The notes under the pieces were generated by a model. It was not told the origin of the DNA. It saw only the letters and a program-made list of their open reading frames with translations, and did not search any database. Below are positions 18,420 through 36,438 of a stretch of DNA of 64,000 nucleotides, piece by piece. The translations under genes were made by a program, and so were the position numbers. Within the stretch, counting starts at the first letter, position 1, and every line of letters begins with the position of its first letter. Location: positions 4,192,001 through 4,256,000 of the forward strand of contig OY970194.1 of assembly GCA_963708075.1 (NCBI GenBank), read 5' to 3'. Source of the stretch: Sedimentisphaerales bacterium. GTDB taxonomy: Bacteria; Planctomycetota; Phycisphaerae; Sedimentisphaerales; Anaerobacaceae.

Positions 18420-18733
18420 TGGCCACAGAGAGCCTGCCCTCGCGAAGGCGGGGGTCACAGAGCACACAGAGAAAATGGAACCGTTGATGAACGCTGATGA
18501 ACGCAGATTTTCAACCGTGAACCGGCAACTGCAAACAGGGATCGGTGATCAGGGCTCAGAACCAATCGGTCCTGCTGCCCCCTGGCCCCTGACCCCTGAC
18601 ACCTCCCTCTTTGAACCGCGGGGGACGCAGAGCCACGCGGAGGAAATGAACTGTGCACGGCGTCGGCGAGAGCCGGTAGCGTGGACTCCGCCCACCGCCT
18701 TGTCTCGAAAACTGGGGTCCGTCCCTAGTATCC
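18420..18733. repeat. Composite intergenic repeat cluster
   Basis: CACAGAG-type and GATGAACGCTGATGAACGCAGAT 9-10-bp periodic motifs, CCCCTGA heptads and a GTAG-type palindrome; segments recur at 22286, 23120 and 26990. Confidence 0.75.
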
Positions 18734-22785: not shown

Positions 22786-23445
22786 GTGGGGCAAGCCCTG
22801 GGGATTTACGGTCTATGATTTGCGATTCACGATTGGGGAGGAGGCAGGGGAAGTGAGAAGTTTGAAGTGTGAAGTTTGATGTTTGAAGCGGGAGGTTTGA
22901 AGCGGAAGGTCTATCGGGGATTGCAGTTCTCTGCGTCTTGGCGTCCCCATTCGACTGCGCTCAGAGCCCGCCCTGAGCTTCGCCGAAGGGGCAGGTTCTG
23001 CGCGAGATAATCAAAGAGGATCGGTGTGCGGTGCACACCCTACGAAATCTGCGAAAATCTGCGTAATCTGCGGATAGAAGAGGCAGTTGCGAGGTGTTTT
23101 TGGCAGTTCTCGCCTGCGAATCCGCGTTTATCAGCGTTTATCAGCGGTTCCATTTTCTCTGCGTGCCGGCGTCCCTGCGAGACAGTGGGCCCGACCAAGC
23201 CTGCAGGGCGAAAGACCATAGCCCAGCGATTGATCGCTGGGGAACCAGGGCCGCAAACAAGAGGAGTCCCGTCAGGGACGAAAGAATGCGCCAAGGGTCG
23301 TGGCGGCTTTCTTTCGCCCCTGTGGGGCTTGGGGTGATTTCGGGCATTCGTACCCACCGTTGAAACGGTGGGCTATCATCATCCGTCCCTGCGGGACTAT
23401 CTTGACACATGTGTAGAATAACCAGGGGCAAGCCCCACCCTACGG
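22786..23445. repeat. Composite repeat cluster
   Basis: 22786-23165 is an inverted copy of about 26985-27350; 23196-23435 is an inverted copy of about 21980-22215. Confidence 0.85.
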
Positions 23446-24909: not shown

Positions 24910-26716
<1,807 letters not shown>

Positions 26717-27352
26717 TCATTGATGATGGATAATGGATGATTGATGATTCAATCATCGAGGCCGCGGAGGAATCTACGTAGGGGCGAATCATCATTCGCC
26801 CGCCTATTTTCGACACGGATTCAGTTCAAAACGATTGATTTTCAACCGCGAAGCACGCGAAATACGCGAAAACTGCTTCATTCATGTCATTCCCGCGAAG
26901 AGCCTGCCCTCGACCCCCGATCAAGTCGAGGGCAAGCTCTGATCGGGGGCGGGAATCCAGGTTTCTTCACCACCGAGGACCCAGAGGACACGGAGAAAAT
27001 GCAACCGCAAATAGACGCTGATGAACGCAGATTTTCGACTGAAAACTATCGAAAAACACCTCGCAACTGTCTTTTTGTCCGCAGATTACGCCGATCTTCG
27101 CAGATCTCGTAGGGTGTGCACCGCACACCGATCCTCTTTGATTATCTCGCGCAGAACCTGCCCCTTCGGAGAAGCTCAGGGCGGGCCCTGAGCGCAGTCG
27201 AATGGGGACGGCGAGACGCAGAGAACTGCAATCCCCGATAGACCTTCCACTTCAAACATCACACTTCACACTTCAAACTTCACCCATCCCACTTCGCTTC
27301 TCAATCGTAAATCGTCATTCACAAATCGTAAATCCAGAGGCCCCTGCCCCGC
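26717..27352. repeat. Composite repeat cluster after lepA
   Basis: GATGATT heptads, GTAGGGGCGAATCATCATTCGCCC and GTAGGGTGTGCACCGCACACC palindromes, GTCATTCCCGCG...GCGGGAATCC, ACTTCAC/ACTTCAA heptads. Confidence 0.85.
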
Positions 27353-27464
27353 GAAAAACCGTCGAAGACCTCAGATTCTCATTGGCTTGTGGGCGGGAAT
27401 ATGGTTAATTATGCCTCTTGATGTGACGCGTCGTTGGTTTACGTGTGTACAGGAGGTACGTCGT

Positions 27465-27563
27465 ATGTCGAAATCGAAAGACACAAGGAAAGAGCAGAAG
27501 AAACAGCCGCAGAAAACGCTGAAGGAAAAGAGAGCCGCCAAGCGAGAGAAGAAGAACGCCTGA
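27465..27563 (+). CDS. Small Lys-rich protein (32 aa)
   Basis: RBS AGGAGG, then MSKSKDTRKEQKKQPQKTLKEKRAAKREKKNA*. Below the ORF-track cutoff. Confidence 0.65.
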   Translation: MSKSKDTRKEQKKQPQKTLKEKRAAKREKKNA

Positions 27564-27749
27564 TCCATCCGCGGCACGATCTCTGTTCAAGTCATCCTGG
27601 CCGCCCGGGATAGTACCCGCATCTGCACGATTCAGGGGCCATCGTACTCAGTTCGCCCCGGAAACAGGTAAAGCGTCCCCCGGGACTTGAGAACCTGGCC
27701 AACGCTCATCATATTAGCGAGCATGAGACGGGTGAGTGTTCCGACAGGC

Positions 27750-27914
27750 TTACTTTGCGGCTGTGACCTCAGGCGAGGGAGGTGTCTTTGTAGACTTCCA
27801 TTTGTCCTTGCGGATGAACTCAGTCCAGATCGCCTTGGCCTCCTCTTCGGAGCAAATGAACGGCTTGTCCGTGCCTCGTGCCTTGCGGTATTCTGTGTTC
27901 GTCATGTTCGACAT
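27750..27914 (-). CDS. Possible small hypothetical protein (about 54 aa)
   Basis: MSNMTNTEYRKARGTDKPFICSEEEAKAIW... with GAGGTGAAGG upstream. Confidence 0.35.
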   Translation of the reverse strand: MSNMTNTEYRKARGTDKPFICSEEEAKAIWTEFIRKDKWKSTKTPPSPEVTAAK

Positions 27915-28265
27915 CCTTCACCTCAGACCGGGCGGCACAGTTCGCTCCGAGAGCCATCTTCAGCTTTCGTCAGGGGCGCTCGCCTCAATCCGAGTACATT
28001 CATTATACGCTTCCCGGCCGGACTTCGTCAACCGCAGACTTCCCGCATCATGCCCCCAACGCCAGGTCCCCGGCCAGTCCACCCCCATTGATTCCCCAAA
28101 AAGGCCCTTTGCGAGCCCCTAAACCCCATTCCACCGTCGAAACCCCGCCCGACCAGCGCCAACCATAAATCTTCGTCCGCGACAGTTATTTCCACGATTT
28201 CCTCCCATGTGGCGGACATCCTTCCCAATTCTCAGCCAAAATGAGCCAAGCGTCCCCAGAACTCA

Positions 28266-31200
28266 CTATTCCCTGATTTCTGGCGGCCATGCATAGGCCG
28301 ATCTTCTCACTGATTCATAGTTCGCATCAAGGTCCCGCTGCATCAGAATCAACGCAGCGATCCGGCGGGCCATGTTCATAACGTCGCGTGCCTCTTCGGT
28401 TTTGATCGCTCTGCCAAGGATGCTCTCTTCCCGGTAACTCAGCCATTTCTTGATGACCTGATACCCGCCGATGTTATACTCCCACACGTTCAAGGGGATG
28501 TTGCGCCAATAAGCCGTATCGTTCAGGTACACGTCGCAGGTCTTTTCGCCTAGTAGCCGAATCACGTCTTTGGCTGTCATTCCTCGTGCCGTAGCTTCAG
28601 CTTCGATGGCCTTAAGCTCTCCTGCATCATATGCCCGCAGAGACAGTCTACCCTTGGCGGGCATGACAACACCGCTTTTGCCGGCATGCCCCCAGCCGGC
28701 GATCACGGCCAAGTCGAGCACCGCCTGCCCAATCTTCGTTGTGACGCCGATGATCTTGAACAGAGGACCTAACCTGCCCACCGTGACGCCGGGGATCTCG
28801 GTCTCGGTATCCAGAATTGCTGCGATCCGCTCACCCAACGATGCTGATGCCTGGAGGGCCTTACGCGCAGCGGGCAGCGGAATCCTAGGCCAATCCCGTC
28901 GAATGCCGTCCGCGTTTTGCGCAAGATAGATCGGGCTATATCCAATTGCCAAAGCGTGCATCCAGATCCACCCCGCTGCCTTGGTGTCCACATCGGCATC
29001 TTTGACGCCTACCTTGGCCAAGTAGGCACGTGCAGCCCTGGAGAGATTGGAGACGGGCTGATCCTCGACACGGCTACCGTCCAAGGCATCAAACAGGGTC
29101 GCGTGTTGCCGCTTGTTCAGACGATTCCCATTGCACAACCAAAATGGAATAGCCACCGCATCAGGCACGATGTAGTGGTCATCGAATAGAGTGGCCGCGA
29201 AACTGATAGGATGCGCCTCCCGATCGGAGCTTGACCGAAAGCGGGTAAGGAGAAACTGATTGCCCTTCCAAAGCTGCGCCCAAAGACTTGGACGCGCGCG
29301 GTTCCAGACGGGACTCACCGATGTATAGTAACACCATCGCACGTCAAAGGGACGCAGAACATATCGGCACACGTGGTCGGCGTCGAACGTCTCCGCTTTG
29401 ATGGCTTTCTGGCGTGCTGTCTTGGGCTCGAACGCCGCAGCGCTTTGGGTCAATGCGCCATGTTGAGCCTTATATTCTTCCCAGGACATGTCGGGTGCCA
29501 GATAATTCCGCATCCGCTCTTCAAGTCTCACACGATCTATATCGATCAGCGCTCCGCCTCGCTTCTCCATCAATCCGTTGAACGGTGGAACAGCACACAA
29601 ATCTACCATTTTCGGCCAAGACTGATACTCGCGAGAGACTGCTTCCGGGCGGAAAGAAAGCCGGTTCTCAGACGACGGACAGGCCAGCGTGTACGTCGCG
29701 TCGAACTTCTTGGTCTTGAGGCTATCGTGCAATTTCGCTCGCTTGTCGACGCCCCAGAAGTGGCGAAAACGAACCGTCGGTTTCTTCTGCCGCGTGGCCT
29801 TGCGGACAATGACGCAAATCGTCGTGCCGACTCGAATGCCTTCACGGTTGTAGTCGGTCGAAAAGACGGACGGGTCGGGTTTGCCTTCGGGCGTCAATTT
29901 TCCTGTTTCCCGGCTGTCGCCGTTCATGCAGTCCAACCACAATTTGTCGAACTCCTTGAGAAACCGCTCGCGCATAACAACGAAGGAGGGGTCACCCAGG
30001 TACGAGAAATTGGAAATGAAGGAGATCACTCCCCTGCCGGTCATCTCCGCGATGCGTCGTTCCGCCAAGCGGAGGAATCGCACGTAGAGATCGTCCAGAT
30101 TGAACTTCTTGATACCCCAGCCGCCAGCGCTCGTAGGCTTGTTCAGATTGGCTTTGTAGGGTTCGACCAGCCCTTGTTCCTCCTCCGGGCTGACACCGGC
30201 GAAGGCATTGTAGGGCGGGTTCCCCAGGATCACCAAAATCTTCTTCTTGCGCTTCACTTGCTCGGCGGCGTCGCGCTCCTCCACGAGCTCCGGATAGGGC
30301 AAAGGCAGGGTCGCCTTGGCTCCCCTGGGTAGCTCCCACCCCGTCAAGGCATTGGTCAGATACACGCCGACCCGCTCACCTTTGCTCTGTAACAGCGGCG
30401 CACCTTCCGCCTGGAGCATCAGGCCCAGTTGGAGGTGCGATACCACAAAGGGGGCGGGGAGGATCTCAAAGCCGAACACGCGGTTCATCGCTGCTTCCTT
30501 CAGATCCGACGCGACGAGAGCGTCTCCCGCCTTGTCGCGCAGAGTTGTGGCAATTCGACGGAGGACCTCGACCAGATATGCCCCCGTGCCACAGCAAGGG
30601 TCCAACACGATCACGTTGGGATCGGCCAAACCATCGGGAAGGTCCAACTCCTCGCGCAAAACCGTGTCGACGCGCACAACCTGATACCTGACGATCTCCG
30701 GTGGGGTGTACCAAACGCCCAGTTCCTTGCGCAAGTCCGGGTCGTAGGCCTCGAGGAACGGTTCGTAAAAGTATTGGACCGCGTGCTCGTCCTCGAAACG
30801 CTTGAAGAACTCACCTCGGTCAACACGGTTCAGGACGCCAGCACCCCAGTCCAGCAGTTCCACCAGGCCCAACTGACCAAGCTGGCTGGGTTCGGCGACT
30901 TGCCGGTATAGGGTTCGGATGAAGGGAACATGCAGAGACCATTCGGACGTGCGCCAGTCAAATCGCGTGTTGGGACTGCGGTTGGCTTTGTGCCAGCTTA
31001 CCCATGCGGAGAAGACGCCGTAGAAAAGGGTCTGAACCAGTGTTGATCGGAAGAAGTGCTCGCCCTTGTCGGCAGTGAACTTCATGCCTAAGGCATCTTC
31101 CAGGGCGGATCTTACGGCCTGCAGAGCCGGCAACTGCTTCTGCTGCTCGACACGGAAAAGACCATCGCGTGCGTAGGATGCCAGGAACCATGCCACCAGT

Positions 31201-31808
31201 TTCGGGCTCACCAGCGGCGCATTGTGCAGACATGCTCGCTTGATGAACTCGATGAACTGCTGGCCCTTTTGCTGGGCGGTTGCGCGGGGATGCGCGACCT
31301 TATTCTGCCAGAAATCCCTTTCATCATCCGCCAGCGAGAATGATTCACGTTCCACTGGATGCGCGTTGGTGCCTCGCTCGACGATCAGGAAGTCACGCAG
31401 GTTGGTCACGACAACGATGCCATATAGATTGAGGTACTTGGAAACCTGCTCGCTTGCCGCGACGCCCTTCACTTCCTTCTTCGCTGACTTTGCTTCTATC
31501 GCGCCGCGAGATGGAGGAAGGCCGCGTCCGGGTTTGGCCTCGCTCTTGCGGCCGAACTGATCGGCTGTAAAGAGTCCCCCATCGGGATTGTCTGCTCCTT
31601 GATCCTTCAGGTTCATGACGCAAAGAACTTTGGGCTTCAGTGTCTTGCCCACGGCGTTGAACAGATTGGCCAGAGCCGGGTAATACGATGTCTCAGGCGA
31701 GTTTGCCTGTGTTGAGCGAATGTCCCGCAATTGGGACAGATACGCCTCGGCAATCCCTACAGCCTGATTGGCCGTCATTGGACCGACACTCGCATCCTGC
31801 TTTGCCAT
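28266..31808 (-). CDS. Single-chain restriction-modification enzyme (nuclease, N6-adenine MTase and Type ISP-like specificity domain)
   Basis: N-terminal 'PDGG...IEAK', 'FYEPFL..YDP..RK..GVWYTP', motif I LDPCCGTG, motif IV GNPPY, C-terminal 'YVLRPFD.RW', 'PRIP', 'IGGYQVIKKWLSYR'. Confidence 0.9.
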   Translation of the reverse strand: MAKQDASVGPMTANQAVGIAEAYLSQLRDIRSTQANSPETSYYPALANLFNAVGKTLKPKVLCVMNLKDQGADNPDGGLFTADQFGRKSEAKPGRGLPPSRGAIEAKSAKKEVKGVAASEQVSKYLNLYGIVVVTNLRDFLIVERGTNAHPVERESFSLADDERDFWQNKVAHPRATAQQKGQQFIEFIKRACLHNAPLVSPKLVAWFLASYARDGLFRVEQQKQLPALQAVRSALEDALGMKFTADKGEHFFRSTLVQTLFYGVFSAWVSWHKANRSPNTRFDWRTSEWSLHVPFIRTLYRQVAEPSQLGQLGLVELLDWGAGVLNRVDRGEFFKRFEDEHAVQYFYEPFLEAYDPDLRKELGVWYTPPEIVRYQVVRVDTVLREELDLPDGLADPNVIVLDPCCGTGAYLVEVLRRIATTLRDKAGDALVASDLKEAAMNRVFGFEILPAPFVVSHLQLGLMLQAEGAPLLQSKGERVGVYLTNALTGWELPRGAKATLPLPYPELVEERDAAEQVKRKKKILVILGNPPYNAFAGVSPEEEQGLVEPYKANLNKPTSAGGWGIKKFNLDDLYVRFLRLAERRIAEMTGRGVISFISNFSYLGDPSFVVMRERFLKEFDKLWLDCMNGDSRETGKLTPEGKPDPSVFSTDYNREGIRVGTTICVIVRKATRQKKPTVRFRHFWGVDKRAKLHDSLKTKKFDATYTLACPSSENRLSFRPEAVSREYQSWPKMVDLCAVPPFNGLMEKRGGALIDIDRVRLEERMRNYLAPDMSWEEYKAQHGALTQSAAAFEPKTARQKAIKAETFDADHVCRYVLRPFDVRWCYYTSVSPVWNRARPSLWAQLWKGNQFLLTRFRSSSDREAHPISFAATLFDDHYIVPDAVAIPFWLCNGNRLNKRQHATLFDALDGSRVEDQPVSNLSRAARAYLAKVGVKDADVDTKAAGWIWMHALAIGYSPIYLAQNADGIRRDWPRIPLPAARKALQASASLGERIAAILDTETEIPGVTVGRLGPLFKIIGVTTKIGQAVLDLAVIAGWGHAGKSGVVMPAKGRLSLRAYDAGELKAIEAEATARGMTAKDVIRLLGEKTCDVYLNDTAYWRNIPLNVWEYNIGGYQVIKKWLSYREESILGRAIKTEEARDVMNMARRIAALILMQRDLDANYESVRRSAYAWPPEIRE

Positions 31809-31929
31809 GCCCGAAATCCCTTGACCTTACGAATGAACCGAAGTGCCAGCCATCTTACTCGACCCGGCGCAGATGTCAAACGATCTCTGCACCCCAGGGC
31901 CACTCTTGTACGAACGAGTTTCCCAGAAG

Positions 31930-32015
31930 AGCGGTGGGCGGAGCCCACCTTACCGGCTCTCGCGTGGTTCGCGCCTGCGGCTGGACGAGGGCGGGCACGG
32001 GGGCCTGCCCCTACA
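31930..32015. repeat. GTAG/GTAA-type REP-like palindromes
   Basis: GGTGGGCGGAGCCCACCTTACCGGCTCTCG (matches 22286-22311) and GGGCACGGGGGCCTGCCCCTAC. Confidence 0.7.
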
Positions 32016-32016
32016 T

Positions 32017-33980
32017 GTCGGCTCGGCAAAGCCGAGTGAAGTTGCTAACTCGCAACAACTGAAAAAGATTTCCAGATCTTCATGCGGCGGCTTTGTTAAG
32101 TTGTTCTGTGGTGGCCTTTTGCGTTAGCGAGATGGTAGCGATGATTTTGGCTCCGTTCGCGGTCAGGCGATACTTGCGAGTCTTGGGCAGACGGCGGATG
32201 ATCTTGTGCTCTCGCAATAGCCGCAGCAGATACGTCACCTTCGCCGAGACCTCCTTGGCAGGACGGTTTGGATAGAGACGGCCGGCAATATCCCGATTGC
32301 GGAAATCCCCGACCAGTCCACAGGTCGCCACCGCCGCCAGCAGTTGCTGGTCCGCCTCGGACCAGGGTCGCAGCGCCCGGATCGATTTGCCCCTGCGGAT
32401 GTGACGCCGGCAGATGGGCGAGACCACTTCTTCCACTCGCTCACTGGTGTCGAGCTTGGCCAGGGCTTCGAGGTAGCGGTCATTGACTTGTTGCGAGACT
32501 TGACTGCGGGCGTATAAGTCCACGATGCCCTTGCTCATGGGCAGCATCCTCTTGGAACCCTGGGGATCGCGTTCGGACCGGCGGTAGACACGAAAGGCCC
32601 GAGCGTTGTTGATCGTGCACTCCGTACGCAGGATCGAGCCGGCCTTGTCATAGACCTTGACGGAGTTGGCGTGTGCCTGGTGCTTGACCCGAATTCCTTC
32701 GGGACGATCCCGGTAACTGCTGATCACCTCCTCCTGGCAGTTGGGATACAGACGCTTGCCGAGGAACCGCAGCACATCCTTGCTGCCAAAGGCGATCATG
32801 GAGCCACGCACCAGTTGGGGATAGATACGGCCCAACGCCTTGGGATCATCAAAGGCGATATCCGTCGCCCATTCGGTCTCATGACTGGTCCAGTAGTAGT
32901 GCAAAGGAAAACCGGCAAACATCGTCTCGTGGGCCGGATTGAGGAATCGTGCGATGCGGCCGAACTGCCGGCACCAATCGGTGCGGTGCAGTTGGTCCAT
33001 CAATGCCTGAGCCCGTGGAAAATCAGCCATCCAGGGAAAGCAGTTGTCACACCGCCGGTACGCCAGATGCTCTTGATCCATCCTCTTGGCCAGCCATTCG
33101 CGGCCGTTCATCCACATCTGAATGGCAAAGGGAAACCACGTTTGGATGCGGGCGCCCATGAACCCGAAGTAGGCATCGTACCAGTAATGGTACAGGTGCA
33201 TGCACTTGCCTTGAAACAGCTCCAAATCCAGCGTCTTGGCCTGGCGATTCTTATGAAGCTTGTAGGTCATGCATGGCTCAATCGTACGCAGAATGCAAAT
33301 CAGTCCCTCCCGGATGCCATCGCGGGCAGCGATGTCCAAAGCGACTTGTTCCTTATTGGTTCGGCTGGAGTGCAGGTACACATTGGGTCGGCCGGCCTGT
33401 TCGGCCTTGGCCACAGAGGCCTGGATCAGTTGCGCCGTCTTGTCCAGGGCGTACTGCTTGAAGTCCTTCATGAGAATGCTGCGATACGCCAGGTAGGAAC
33501 ACATCCCCGCCAGGTTGGCCACCAGGCGAAGGGTCCCACGAAAAACGATGCGGTCCCAGCCGCTCAAAACCCCTATAATGTGCTTCTTGTGCTTCTCCAT
33601 GAACGATTGCATGGCATCCTCCTTGAAAAAACAGGTTGTCAGGTACAGCAACCAGCATAGCAGGGATGGATGCCTTTTTCATTCCAGAGGCTTGTGATCA
33701 TCCTTTTCCTTTTTGCCCTCGATAGGCTTGGGGCAAAAAGGAAAAGGGTGACCATCGTGGACAACAAGCGGGGCCAGCAGCGTCCACGGAGTGTGAGCAA
33801 GAAAAATGACAGGCGAGTCACGAGGGCGGATTCAACATCGCCGAGGATCGCGACTCTCGCTGGCGGCCCAGACTCGTGACCGAGACCACGCCTGGCATGT
33901 TCTTGCCACACGCAGTAGCTGCGGTCGAACGAGAACGCACATGCGATACGCCTTTGGTTGCGGCCGAAGGCCGCGCCAAG
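32017..33980 (-). mobile_element. Putative unclassified insertion element with subterminal hairpins
   Basis: Hairpins CTCGGC-AAA-GCCGAG (32022-32036) and GCGGCC-GAA-GGCCGC (33960-33974). It abuts a truncated repeat at 33981. No TIR or TSD seen. Confidence 0.55.
32080..33612 (-). CDS. Putative Rep-like (Rep_trans-type) transposase with C-terminal winged helix, 510 aa
   Basis: RBS AAGGAGGA; motifs 'GVLSGWDRIVFRG', 'TEWATDIAF', 'NSVKVYDK.GSILRTECTIN', C-terminal 'LLRLLREHKIIRR...RKYRLT..G'. Family assignment is inferred. Confidence 0.6.
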   Translation of the reverse strand: MQSFMEKHKKHIIGVLSGWDRIVFRGTLRLVANLAGMCSYLAYRSILMKDFKQYALDKTAQLIQASVAKAEQAGRPNVYLHSSRTNKEQVALDIAARDGIREGLICILRTIEPCMTYKLHKNRQAKTLDLELFQGKCMHLYHYWYDAYFGFMGARIQTWFPFAIQMWMNGREWLAKRMDQEHLAYRRCDNCFPWMADFPRAQALMDQLHRTDWCRQFGRIARFLNPAHETMFAGFPLHYYWTSHETEWATDIAFDDPKALGRIYPQLVRGSMIAFGSKDVLRFLGKRLYPNCQEEVISSYRDRPEGIRVKHQAHANSVKVYDKAGSILRTECTINNARAFRVYRRSERDPQGSKRMLPMSKGIVDLYARSQVSQQVNDRYLEALAKLDTSERVEEVVSPICRRHIRRGKSIRALRPWSEADQQLLAAVATCGLVGDFRNRDIAGRLYPNRPAKEVSAKVTYLLRLLREHKIIRRLPKTRKYRLTANGAKIIATISLTQKATTEQLNKAAA

Positions 33981-34090
33981 TTCATCGGCGTTCATCTGCG
34001 GTTGGAGAGCAGTTGACAGTTGTCTGTGGTCGGTTGTCAGTTGTGGCGTGCACGCCTTCGTGCTTTCTTCGTGGTCTTTGTGGTGGATCG
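33981..34090. repeat. Repeat cluster
   Basis: TTCATCGGCGTTCATCTGCGGTT, GTTGTCA/GTTGTCT heptads, CTTCGTGCTTTCTTCGTGGTCTTTGTG. Confidence 0.65.
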
Positions 34091-35017
34091 TTTTCTCTTT
34101 CGCTTGTCTGCTCTGCGTCTGGCGGCCTGGGCTCTTTTGTAGACCGCTTTTATCCGCTCTTTGGGCCACTCTTCGGGGAAGTTCAGGTAGGCGAATTCGC
34201 CGTTGAGCTCGACGTTCTTGCGGTCGCTGGCGCGGGCGGCTTCGATCTCGTCGGTGTAGCGGCCGACGTGGACGCTTTTGCCGTTGTACCAGGCGGTGGA
34301 CCGCCACAGGTTCCGATTCTTGTCCCGCGTGACGCCTTTGTATTTCGAAGTCTTGCCTCGCGGGCGGCGGTTGCAGTTGTTCTGGCCGTAAGTGCACAGG
34401 CGCATGTTGGCCTTGCGGTTGTCCAGGCTGGTGCCGTCGTGGTGATCGACGACCTTGCCCTTGGGGGCCTTCATGATCTGGCGATGCATGAGGATGCATT
34501 TGCCCTTGGAGTTGCGAGCGGCGTACCATTTGCCGCAGGTGTAGTGGGCGGTCCATCGATAGCGGCTGAGCTCCTCGTAGTCCTCGGCGTCCACGATGGC
34601 GAACATGCCCTTCGTCAAGGCGATGTAGCGAACCTTGTCGTTCGGGGGCTCCGGCTCGGGGTAGCGGACCGGCGGCTCGCGCCGGCCGTGGAAGTTGCGG
34701 CACGTGCCGCACGGGAGCACCTCTTTGATCTTGCCCGGCGCGGCGGCACTGTTGACGCAGAGCAGTTGGCCCGGCCAGCGGGTCGTCAGCCAGCCGGCGA
34801 AGACGCAATAGGCGCAGGTCCGCTTGTTCGCCGGCTCCTGGCGCTGCTCGTTGTCTGCGGGAGGCCGCCCGCGTGCCCGGAATCGTTTCTCGTGCTCCGC
34901 GTCCTGCGGCCGATGACCGGCGGGCTCCACGGGAGCGTCCCCCGGCTCGATGCTGGTCGATGGAAGGCGCTGCGGAGCGCTCGTCCCACTTTCTGTCCTG
35001 TGCTCTGCATTGTCCAT
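34037..35017 (-). CDS. HNH endonuclease-AP2 domain protein with Cys-rich N-terminus
   Basis: 'MHRQIM...VVDHHDGTSLDNRKANMRLCT', AP2 'SKYKGV...W.......HVGRY.DE.EAARA.D', N-terminal CAYC..C..CGTC. Confidence 0.85.
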   Translation of the reverse strand: MDNAEHRTESGTSAPQRLPSTSIEPGDAPVEPAGHRPQDAEHEKRFRARGRPPADNEQRQEPANKRTCAYCVFAGWLTTRWPGQLLCVNSAAAPGKIKEVLPCGTCRNFHGRREPPVRYPEPEPPNDKVRYIALTKGMFAIVDAEDYEELSRYRWTAHYTCGKWYAARNSKGKCILMHRQIMKAPKGKVVDHHDGTSLDNRKANMRLCTYGQNNCNRRPRGKTSKYKGVTRDKNRNLWRSTAWYNGKSVHVGRYTDEIEAARASDRKNVELNGEFAYLNFPEEWPKERIKAVYKRAQAARRRADKRKRKRSTTKTTKKARRRARHN

Positions 35018-35287
35018 CTTCTGCCCTCCCAAAGGCGGTTCCGGACGATTCCCAGGAGGGCCGCGGACGAGAACACGCGCCCCTCCACTAGGGGACGAAA
35101 GTGCGCGAATCGGTCGAAAAAAGTGAAGGATCGAGGGAGTGGAGAGCGCTATAACTCATTGTGGGCAAAGGAATAGAAAAAATCCTGCACGGCAGCCGTT
35201 TTCACTTCCAAACCGGCGCACGAATCGTGCGAAAATCGACCGAAAGTGGTACGGGGGGCGATTGTGTTCCTGCGCCGGTCGGGCGGC

Positions 35288-35473
35288 TCAGGTGTAGTTG
35301 ATGTTTCCGAAGCCGAGGAAGGCCCGGCAGTGGGGGCAGAGGAGGAACTGCTTACGCTCGATGAAGCCCATGCCCTTGGACTTCACCCAGATGAATCGCA
35401 GTTCTTTGTGGCAATGGGGACAGAGCGGCCAGACATCCTCCGGCGCTTCCGTGATATCGAGCTTTTCCTTCAT
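35288..35473 (-). CDS. Small zinc-ribbon protein
   Basis: Two CPHC motifs; RBS AGGAG. Confidence 0.65.
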   Translation of the reverse strand: MKEKLDITEAPEDVWPLCPHCHKELRFIWVKSKGMGFIERKQFLLCPHCRAFLGFGNINYT

Positions 35474-35522
35474 TTCGATTCTCCTGTGCTGAAGGGGCGC
35501 AAGAAGCCGAGGGGTCGTGGCT

Positions 35523-36155
35523 CTATCTGCGCTCCCAGGTCACTCTGAACTCGGGGGTGACGGCGTAGACGAGATCGTTGACGAGTCCGGCGTAGGCGTT
35601 GTCCGGGTCATCGATGTCGAGGCTGACGTTTTTGTTCGCGGAGAAGCTGGCGCCGCCGATCCGCTGCGTGGCGTCGGCGGAGCGGCTCCAGAGCGATGCT
35701 CCGCTGGCGGCCTCGACTATCTGCACGGCGAACGTGGCGTGCACATCCGCGGAGACCCCGATGCTGGTCAGGCTGTGGAAGACGGAGATGTTCGGGCGGA
35801 CCTCAGAGAGCACGAGATCGCCCGTGACAATCGTCTGGACGCCGTACTTTTCGCCGATCGCCTTGAAGGCGGCCGGATCGAGCCGGGGCTGACCGATCGC
35901 CTGGAGAACCTCGCCCTCGGTCCCCAGTCGCGTGAAGCGCACCATGCCCTGGTCCTGCCTTGCCGCCTCGATGAATCGGCCCGTGGCGAGGGGCCCGAGC
36001 GCATCCTGCGAGGTACAGGGGAACTCGATGACGCCGATGATCTCGTGCGCCTTGAGGTCGATCCGGGGAGGGATCATCACCCTGGTCCTGGACCCGCACC
36101 CGCATACTGCCAGTGACACTACCAAAATCGCGGCCGGCCCAAACGCTCGTACCAT
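35523..36155 (-). CDS. Lipoprotein (CsgG/TolB_N-like fold possible)
   Basis: Lipobox-like signal; 'AIGEKYGVQTIVTG', 'IVEAASGASLWS'. Confidence 0.6.
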   Translation of the reverse strand: MVRAFGPAAILVVSLAVCGCGSRTRVMIPPRIDLKAHEIIGVIEFPCTSQDALGPLATGRFIEAARQDQGMVRFTRLGTEGEVLQAIGQPRLDPAAFKAIGEKYGVQTIVTGDLVLSEVRPNISVFHSLTSIGVSADVHATFAVQIVEAASGASLWSRSADATQRIGGASFSANKNVSLDIDDPDNAYAGLVNDLVYAVTPEFRVTWERR

Positions 36156-36274
36156 GCAAAGGCTCCTTTCAAGCGCACCATGACCATAGTACTATCGGCC
36201 AAATCGGGGTCGCACCAAATGAGAAAACGAGGCAATGCTTCGGGGGTTGCACGACAGTAAATGGCAGTTGATCC

Positions 36275-36363
36275 GGGTGGCAGCGTCAAGGCCGTAGGTC
36301 TTGGCGATGGTTGCACCGTATCCGAGGAGGGCCATCGCCAAGCTGCGCTTGACGCTGCCACCC
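36275..36363. repeat. Inverted REP doublet (GGGTGGCAGCG family)
   Basis: GGGTGGCAGCGTCAAG...TTGGCGATGG and the inverted GCCATCGCCAAGCTGCGCTTGACGCTGCCACCC. Confidence 0.8.
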
Positions 36364-36438
36364 AGCCACCTCATGCTTGCTCTTCCAGAATCCTGTCGTG
36401 TACCCTCTTGGGTGGTATGAACGGTTCTTCGTGTTTTA

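Follow-up and report, generated by a model that had tools for sequence, protein, structure and literature searches.

The window analysed here, the whole stretch of 64,000 nt, carries on its reverse strand a 1,939-nt mobile element (32041-33979), which BLAST recovers as near-identical sequence at three loci of its own genome. The two further genomic copies (C1:3519585 and C1:5208771) occupy unrelated sites and are nearly identical to the window copy. The 510-aa ORF with the segments TEWATDIAF and KVYDK...LRTE that had been read from this DNA is present within the element (32080-33612, reverse strand), preceded by a strong ribosome-binding site (AAGGAGG at 33618-33624). The features of the locus are as follows.

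32041..33979, reverse strand: whole element, 1,939 nt, the sequence common to the three genomic copies
32080..33612, reverse strand: putative transposase of 510 aa, with a predicted TBP-fold domain (about residues 1-390) and winged helix (about 392-510), from the ORF and structural models
32041..32079, reverse strand: gene-3' end, ending in TAGCAAC (TAGYARY in the family, from comparison of the ends of relatives); putative initiation end, ori-like
33953..33979, reverse strand: gene-5' end, composed of TTGG (4 nt), the hairpin 33960-33974 and an AACC motif, matching the family motif; putative termination end, ter-like
33613..33674, reverse strand: hairpin predicted to mask the ribosome-binding site in read-through transcripts; its 12 pairs never vary and show no covariation
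33703..33746, no strand assigned: 17-pair inverted repeat in the leader, with 3 pairs changed on both sides
33774..33924, reverse strand: structured leader, a long interrupted stem specific to one clade and optional in the family, with compensatory pairs among 7 sequences
32022..32040, no strand assigned: flank, a hairpin plus 4 nt adjoining the gene-3' end where a repeat half would be expected; absent from the other two copies
33980..34000, forward strand: right half of the short host repeat that serves as target, identified from repeat matches; an unfilled repeat of this type joins exactly at 33980 (X5)

Copies, ends and insertion junctions

The original prediction had placed a unit at 32017-33980, bracketed by two hairpins with 6-bp stems and 3-nt loops (32022-32036 and 33960-33974) and abutting a GTAG-type REP on its left. 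Both hairpins exist, but the bracketing does not hold: the three copies agree only from 32041 on, which leaves the left hairpin, and with it the REP-like unit at about 31991-32015, in flanking DNA. The left hairpin, absent from the other two copies and with no second perfect copy in its own genome, was accordingly rejected as an element end, and the right hairpin alone is conserved. Since hairpins of this type number 24 in the window and occur at 0.43 per kb genome-wide, two of them prove little by themselves. A public contig matches 32041-33981 with zero differences and then runs into the flank of copy 2 (X1 record 2). Both non-window copies share a one-base insertion, and one of them has another; because the public contig with the copy-2 flank lacks the insertion, these extra bases may be assembly errors or strain differences.

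Comparison with relatives defined the ends further. The family pattern at the gene-5' end (4 nt, hairpin, CCGSAAYC) was found upstream of 84 of 98 distinct loci, a count that omits four distant plasmid loci, versus 1.7 in shuffles and 1 on the opposite strand, and the 3' ends of relatives, as judged by eye, carry a short motif rather than a hairpin. A related genome of the set (G132) holds 22 full-length copies of 1,700 nt, 0-3 nt apart and each at its own site, 16 of them with a half-repeat upstream. Of 301 genomes from the phylum, 17 have homologues, as do 13 of the 23 other genomes of the genus, and a distant clade on Burkholderiaceae plasmids has ends of its own that are common to three different sites. 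Short non-coding derivatives consisting of just the two ends, with two end types, are present in the element's own genome (64-198 nt), and derivatives of about 175 nt in G132. The collected homologous loci thus include multiple genomic copies, conserved ends and empty sites, as the proposal of mobility had anticipated. The mobile element is real, and its family has been recently active.

Both C-type and T-type ends occur among the element and derivative ends of the element's own genome. This genome also contains a second-lineage remnant, comprising a hairpin end and a gene start (C1:5137309-5137584, reverse strand), which is probably the partner of the T-type derivatives. In G132, one element copy (C1:2160816-2163918) is split by about 1.4 kb of other DNA.

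Neither terminal inverted repeats nor target duplication were found in the three copies, in the G132 copies or against an empty orthologue in another genome (G378), as the original prediction had stated. It had also reported that the right edge cuts a recurring repeat in half; the repeat is there, with 3 matches in the window and 0 in 100 shuffles, and the cut falls at 33979|33980 instead of 33981. Unfilled copies of this target repeat lie at 18486-18508, 23120-23142 and 27010-27032 of the window. In the element's own genome the junction is ambiguous by two bases, and the register was settled by relatives. In G378 the orthologue of a gene hit in G132 is uninterrupted and reads ATG CAC GAA; the register must therefore be C|ACGAAG, no base having been duplicated or deleted, and 18 of 21 unfilled G132 repeats have C at the position preceding the cut. 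Other junction registers are ruled out by this orthologue and by the unfilled repeats.

The other two copies lie between both halves of the host repeat ATCTGC|GTYCATC, and the window copy has the right half only. Next to its gene-3' end, TTCA and a hairpin take the place of GCAGAT, an arrangement that resembles the element's predicted end-to-end junction (TTGG plus hairpin). This odd junction could reflect termination at a surrogate hairpin, the end of a decayed relative, an off-target insertion or a misassembly; no contig bridging it was seen among the contigs listed, and 23 genomes of the same genus yielded no empty orthologous site corresponding to the window copy.

Target choice and its covariation with the element end

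Read in gene sense, the 22 G132 targets have C before the cut in 21 cases. After the cut come A in all 22, C in 20, a purine in 22, a position that varies, and again A in 22. The resulting target type is C|RCRRA, situated mostly inside short host repeats, so the suggestion that the element targets repeats is borne out. In two distant lineages, doublets of 9-10-nt direct repeats are the preferred targets.

Analysis of the gene-3' junctions revealed that element base -4 covaries with target base +1. The junctions were called with a matrix blind to both positions, and four distant plasmid loci (one of which had earlier given a false junction call), the window copy and the partial locus of copy 2 were omitted beforehand. 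Among 75 calls from 108 distinct loci, the combinations were T:A in 51, C:G in 16, T:G in 2, C:A in 2, T:T in 3 and G:T in 1. The target base is mispredicted by base -4 in 4 of 71 loci and by the best single amino-acid state in 10. That target +1 belongs to the host is evident from the G378 empty orthologue. A quick tree places 10 and 9 changes in the two traits, and 8 independent tree pairs gave a mean of 5.7 in agreement and 0 in opposition (median p 0.031, range 0.031-0.219 over pairings; p 0.25 in a smaller set of 60 loci). Within the element's own genome, 5 of 6 C-type ends adjoin G, and all 4 T-type ends adjoin A. The window copy violates the rule with a C:T mismatch, and the distant Burkholderia clade shows no clear sign of it.

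The simplest reading of this covariation is a 2-bp pairing across the junction (GY-NNN-RC), which suggests base-pair-assisted targeting. One varying pair is involved, and a symmetric readout of GY-NNN-RC by the protein could also produce the pattern. About 42 nt past the stop codon, a sub-clade represented by L169 and L176 has swapped junction bases (GA|TC for GT|AC) that are still palindromic. The commonest element start, ACAG (17 of 72), is also the commonest target start.

These junctions also bear on conservative recombination of double-stranded DNA through a circle with a short core, of the IS110 or tyrosine recombinase type. The lack of duplication and the two ambiguous junction bases in the element's own genome are in keeping with such a route, which we nevertheless regard as very unlikely. 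In G132 the base before the element is C and the element's last base is T, which leaves no shared core; members with an 80-nt leader hit similar targets; no recombinase or DEDD fold appears among the structural matches listed; and the candidate internal guide fails to covary with the target. That guide (33934-33943, where 9 of 10 positions match the target) was rejected on the absence of covariation in L001-L003.

The leader measures about 365 nt in the clade of the window copy versus about 100 nt in many relatives, and its structured segment is absent from short-leader members such as L100. Across 7 sequences, 97% of the cells are paired and 6 pairs are changed on both sides, a result reached by 9 of 500 shuffles that ignore kinship. 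Since the leader is optional, it is not a required guide. In 61 genomes it turned up nowhere outside the element, and no Rfam family matched it at the gathering score, with only miRNA models below that score. A sigma-70 scan of 33560-34050 yielded no promoter.

The encoded protein and its predicted fold

The 510-aa protein belongs to a large family: 3,306 relatives were recognized among 7,997 scored candidates, and clustering at 50% identity divides the family into 5,689 clusters. Ten plasmid records out of 72,556 contain a match, from Burkholderiaceae, Rhodococcus and mycobacteria, labelled as hypothetical, as an ArsR regulator or left unannotated; no homologue was found among 50,697 phage records. 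Searches of Pfam, NCBIfam and PHROGs provided no family name, only weak winged-helix matches, and no transposase match in Pfam or NCBIfam. A sequence search of the PDB returned nothing, and the atlas clusters are all hypothetical. The judgement that the unit cannot be placed in standard IS families is upheld in that the protein fits no family in the libraries searched.

A Rep_trans-like identity had been proposed for this protein, with PF02486 as the family to compare. Membership by sequence was not found: PF02486 matched neither the 510-aa protein (E up to 1), nor any of 20 relatives examined (E up to 0.1), nor any protein of its own genome, and hhalign against a shallow 9-sequence Rep_trans alignment detected no profile similarity (probability 0.8%). 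The Rep_trans motifs I (RxD) and II (T/SxY/ExG) and the E of motif III are absent, the consensus being instead QxEWATD, RxKH and YDKxG. The order of conserved residues is nonetheless that of Rep_trans, in which the active site runs N'-D, motif I, YxK, RxE (PMC5714925, in the accessible text of section 10): D20, E247, Y321, R329 and E331 follow this order in the protein. In 108 sequences, Y143, G150, P161, N169, E247, Y321, R329 and E331 are invariant, D20 is retained in 104 and K323 in 101, and conservation of D20, E247, D251, Y321, R329 and E331 lies at 96-100%. Y321 falls on a predicted beta-strand (316-323), Y143 is a second invariant tyrosine, and no conserved H-x-H (HUH) pair exists in the family.

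Structure prediction gave a pLDDT of 93.2 for the full-length protein and of 96.6 for residues 1-390 folded alone. Fold searches with the full-length protein mainly returned winged-helix matches; for this C-terminal domain, noted from the sequence, model residues 392-510 match MarR/PadR-type wHTH proteins (Z 8-9.8). With the N-terminal domain as query against 48,161 chains, the best seven VIA rows are five TBP or TBP-containing chains, among them 6cnb_R, which we take to contain TBP, and both Rep_trans structures. The scores were Z 8.6, rmsd 3.5 over 177 aligned residues for TBP (1mp9), Z 7.2, rmsd 4.5 over 186 for RepSTK1 (4cij), and Z 6.9, rmsd 4.8 over 179 for RepDE (4cwc). The Rep_trans scores are therefore modest, at about 7 below the 8.6 of TBP and within the range that the tool labels a 'common arrangement'. 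Foldseek also returned 4cij as the best PDB match for the domain (E 1.1e-3), with TM-scores of 0.18-0.26. In the viral library the matches were unnamed proteins, viral TBPs and an inovirus Rep, including A0A345MNV4 at E 8e-4; this protein carries PF02486, and Rep_trans has the TBP fold, according to the accessible text of PMC13107129. The 4cwc alignment, itself of modest score, begins at model residue 13 and chain residue 39, which would place D20 on D46 if ungapped. No RNase H, HUH, recombinase or DEDD fold was present among the best 50 matches listed for the N-terminal domain. The nearest enzymes in the proposed comparison are thus RepSTK1 and RepDE, at modest scores, and not a known IS transposase. 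Predicted fold and residue order agree with the earlier notion of a non-HUH, Rep_trans-like tyrosine enzyme, and by prediction the protein is Rep_trans-like in how it works while not being a PF02486 member.

Since TBP outscores Rep_trans and one homologue is annotated as an ArsR regulator, we also considered that the ORF might be a passenger regulator with a TBP-like domain and a winged helix, and that the element is moved in trans by some other transposase. To this we give hardly any credence: the acidic, tyrosine and arginine residues are invariant, the gene and the end motif travel together over 30-90% identity (84 of 98), and the gene is missing from the short derivatives exactly as transposase genes are.

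A proposed mode of movement and its known counterparts

We consider it probable, on the strength of the structural model and the layout of the ends, that the element is an autonomous member of a large, unannotated insertion sequence family, and that its predicted TBP-fold tyrosine nickase moves one strand in an IS91-like, rolling-circle manner. Movement of a single strand is likely because there is no target duplication and because the protein is predicted to fold like rolling-circle nicking enzymes; tyrosine nicking and single-strand transfer are inferred. In the proposed sequence of events, Y321, with a metal held by D20, E247 (or D251) and E331, would nick the gene-antisense strand at the gene-3' end (32041) and the enzyme would stay attached to the 5' end of the nicked strand, which host replication would displace. 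A second cut would fall 5 nt beyond the hairpin stem at the gene-5' end (33979), and the freed strand, directly or as a circle, would be joined into a nicked target C|RCRRA (gene sense). The target would be chosen with the help of the element's own end, through pairing of two bases at the initiating end with the two target bases next to the cut.

Movement of the antisense strand is proposed by analogy with IS91. In the accessible text of PMC13181058, IS91-family elements move as the bottom strand and cause no duplication; their target adjoins oriIS, terIS carries a palindrome, and the ter cut site resembles the target. The layout here is similar, with the strict target beside the gene-3' end and the hairpin beside the gene-5' end. 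The opposite polarity, with the origin at the hairpin end and transfer of the gene-sense strand, appears improbable to us. Rep-Arvir initiators do have a hairpin as origin (PMC13107129, in the part available), and the element's own genome is rich in hairpin ends with no recognizable partner end within 400 nt. The hairpin, however, does not contain the cut, and it is the end lacking a hairpin that borders the strict target (A at +1 in all 22), as at oriIS of IS91 in the accessible text of PMC13181058.

Under the IS91-like reading, the gene-5' end would resemble a target, and head-to-tail copies are therefore expected. Junctions of a 3' end with the 5' end of a related copy were observed at L140:2370-2400, L158:1-60, and L162:60-100 and 1740-1780. 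No circle (end-to-end) junction was seen in four contig sets or in G132, contigs being prone to drop rare forms.

The target choice of IS200/IS605 elements is guided by base pairing, and their small Y1 HUH TnpA acts on hairpins at both ends. The same enzyme as in our proposal might work in a comparable peel-and-paste fashion, cutting both ends on single-stranded DNA, with the donor resealed and a single-stranded circle inserted under the guidance of base pairing. Precise insertion without duplication, the element-target covariation, the minimal 64-nt derivatives and the absence of a helicase domain from the 510-aa protein all fit this scheme. We hold it to be unlikely, though worth keeping in mind, given that there is a hairpin at one end only and that the nearest enzymes are replication initiators; the rapid gain of copies in G132 suits copy-in, if not decisively. 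The likeness to IS200/IS605 thus extends to single-strand chemistry, as proposed here, and to element bases that may pair with the target, and the differences are a 510-aa non-HUH protein in place of a Y1 HUH TnpA and a single hairpin.

The family shares with IS91, IS801 and IS1294 the absence of terminal inverted repeats and of duplication, unlike ends, a palindrome upstream of the gene and a target beside the downstream end. The IS91 transposase, however, is a HUH Y2 enzyme, whereas the protein here has no HUH motif, a different predicted fold and its tyrosine on a strand, and its target bases covary with the element end. DDE insertion sequences differ in having terminal inverted repeats and target duplication. 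Helitrons and Replitrons resemble the family in copy-and-paste movement, oriented insertion, a terminal hairpin and non-autonomous derivatives, but are eukaryotic and HUH-based (PMC10288648, accessible text).

With the Rep_trans/MOBT enzymes (RepSTK1 4CIJ, RepDE 4CWC and inovirus Reps) the protein shares a predicted TBP-like fold, the order of acidic residues and a YxK on a beta-strand with RxE downstream. It differs from them in lacking a sequence-level match, in its altered motifs I-III, in its fused winged helix and in being encoded by an insertion sequence with defined ends instead of a plasmid, phage or ICE. The Rep-Arvir/DUF7845 proteins likewise join a TBP-like catalytic domain to a downstream MarR-like winged helix and have similar structural matches to TBP and an inovirus Rep, but are archaeal replication initiators of viruses and plasmids, and the accessible text of PMC13107129 does not describe transposition by them. 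DUF7845 (PF25227) was not among the Pfam matches listed for the family, in a Pfam copy that may lack this entry.

Rolling-circle and single-strand transposons use HUH enzymes in the accessible parts of PMC10288648 and PMC5714925, the former naming only HUH-based groups of Rep-mobilised transposons. Rep_trans enzymes, in the source text available, serve plasmids, filamentous phages and ICE transfer. A literature search whose scope stopped short of ISfinder, most subscription journals and supplements returned no published description of the family. The predicted enzyme class is thus likely to be new for transposons, with a likely IS91-like way of working. We see an even chance that it amounts to an undescribed major class of prokaryotic transposase, namely TBP-fold, Rep_trans-related enzymes of thousands of mis-annotated elements across phyla, whose end bases pair with the target.

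If so, a second class of rolling-circle nuclease has likewise been turned into a transposase, and if the pairing is real, an altered element end would re-aim insertion. The family is large, recently active and able to interrupt genes, yields miniature derivatives and is labelled as hypothetical or as a regulator. Its mechanism is directly testable, because the ends are tiny (a 64-nt derivative) and insertion is scar-free.

Several features of the surroundings were recorded alongside the element. A gene for a 1,180-aa DNA methyltransferase with a Type ISP C-terminal specificity domain (28266-31808, reverse strand) adjoins the element's atypical end and is patchy in the genus, its start being matched in 3 of 23 other genomes. 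Further along, a gene for an HNH_3 and AP2 protein (34037-35032, reverse strand) has many paralogues in the genome and genus, often amid short repeats. An 8.8-kb segment (26733-35523) containing the methyltransferase, the element, the HNH-AP2 gene and repeats is missing after lepA in G305 and G313, and this comparison marks the stretch between lepA and the next conserved gene as an insertion hot spot. The lepA-like gene (24910-26733, forward strand) is split over several frames, which suggests assembly indel errors. Finally, a repeat of about 165 nt (36242-36405), with inverted ends and a long internal palindrome, looks like a MITE unrelated to the element; it has at least 14 matches in its own genome and many in G307 and G311, some with short terminal direct repeats.
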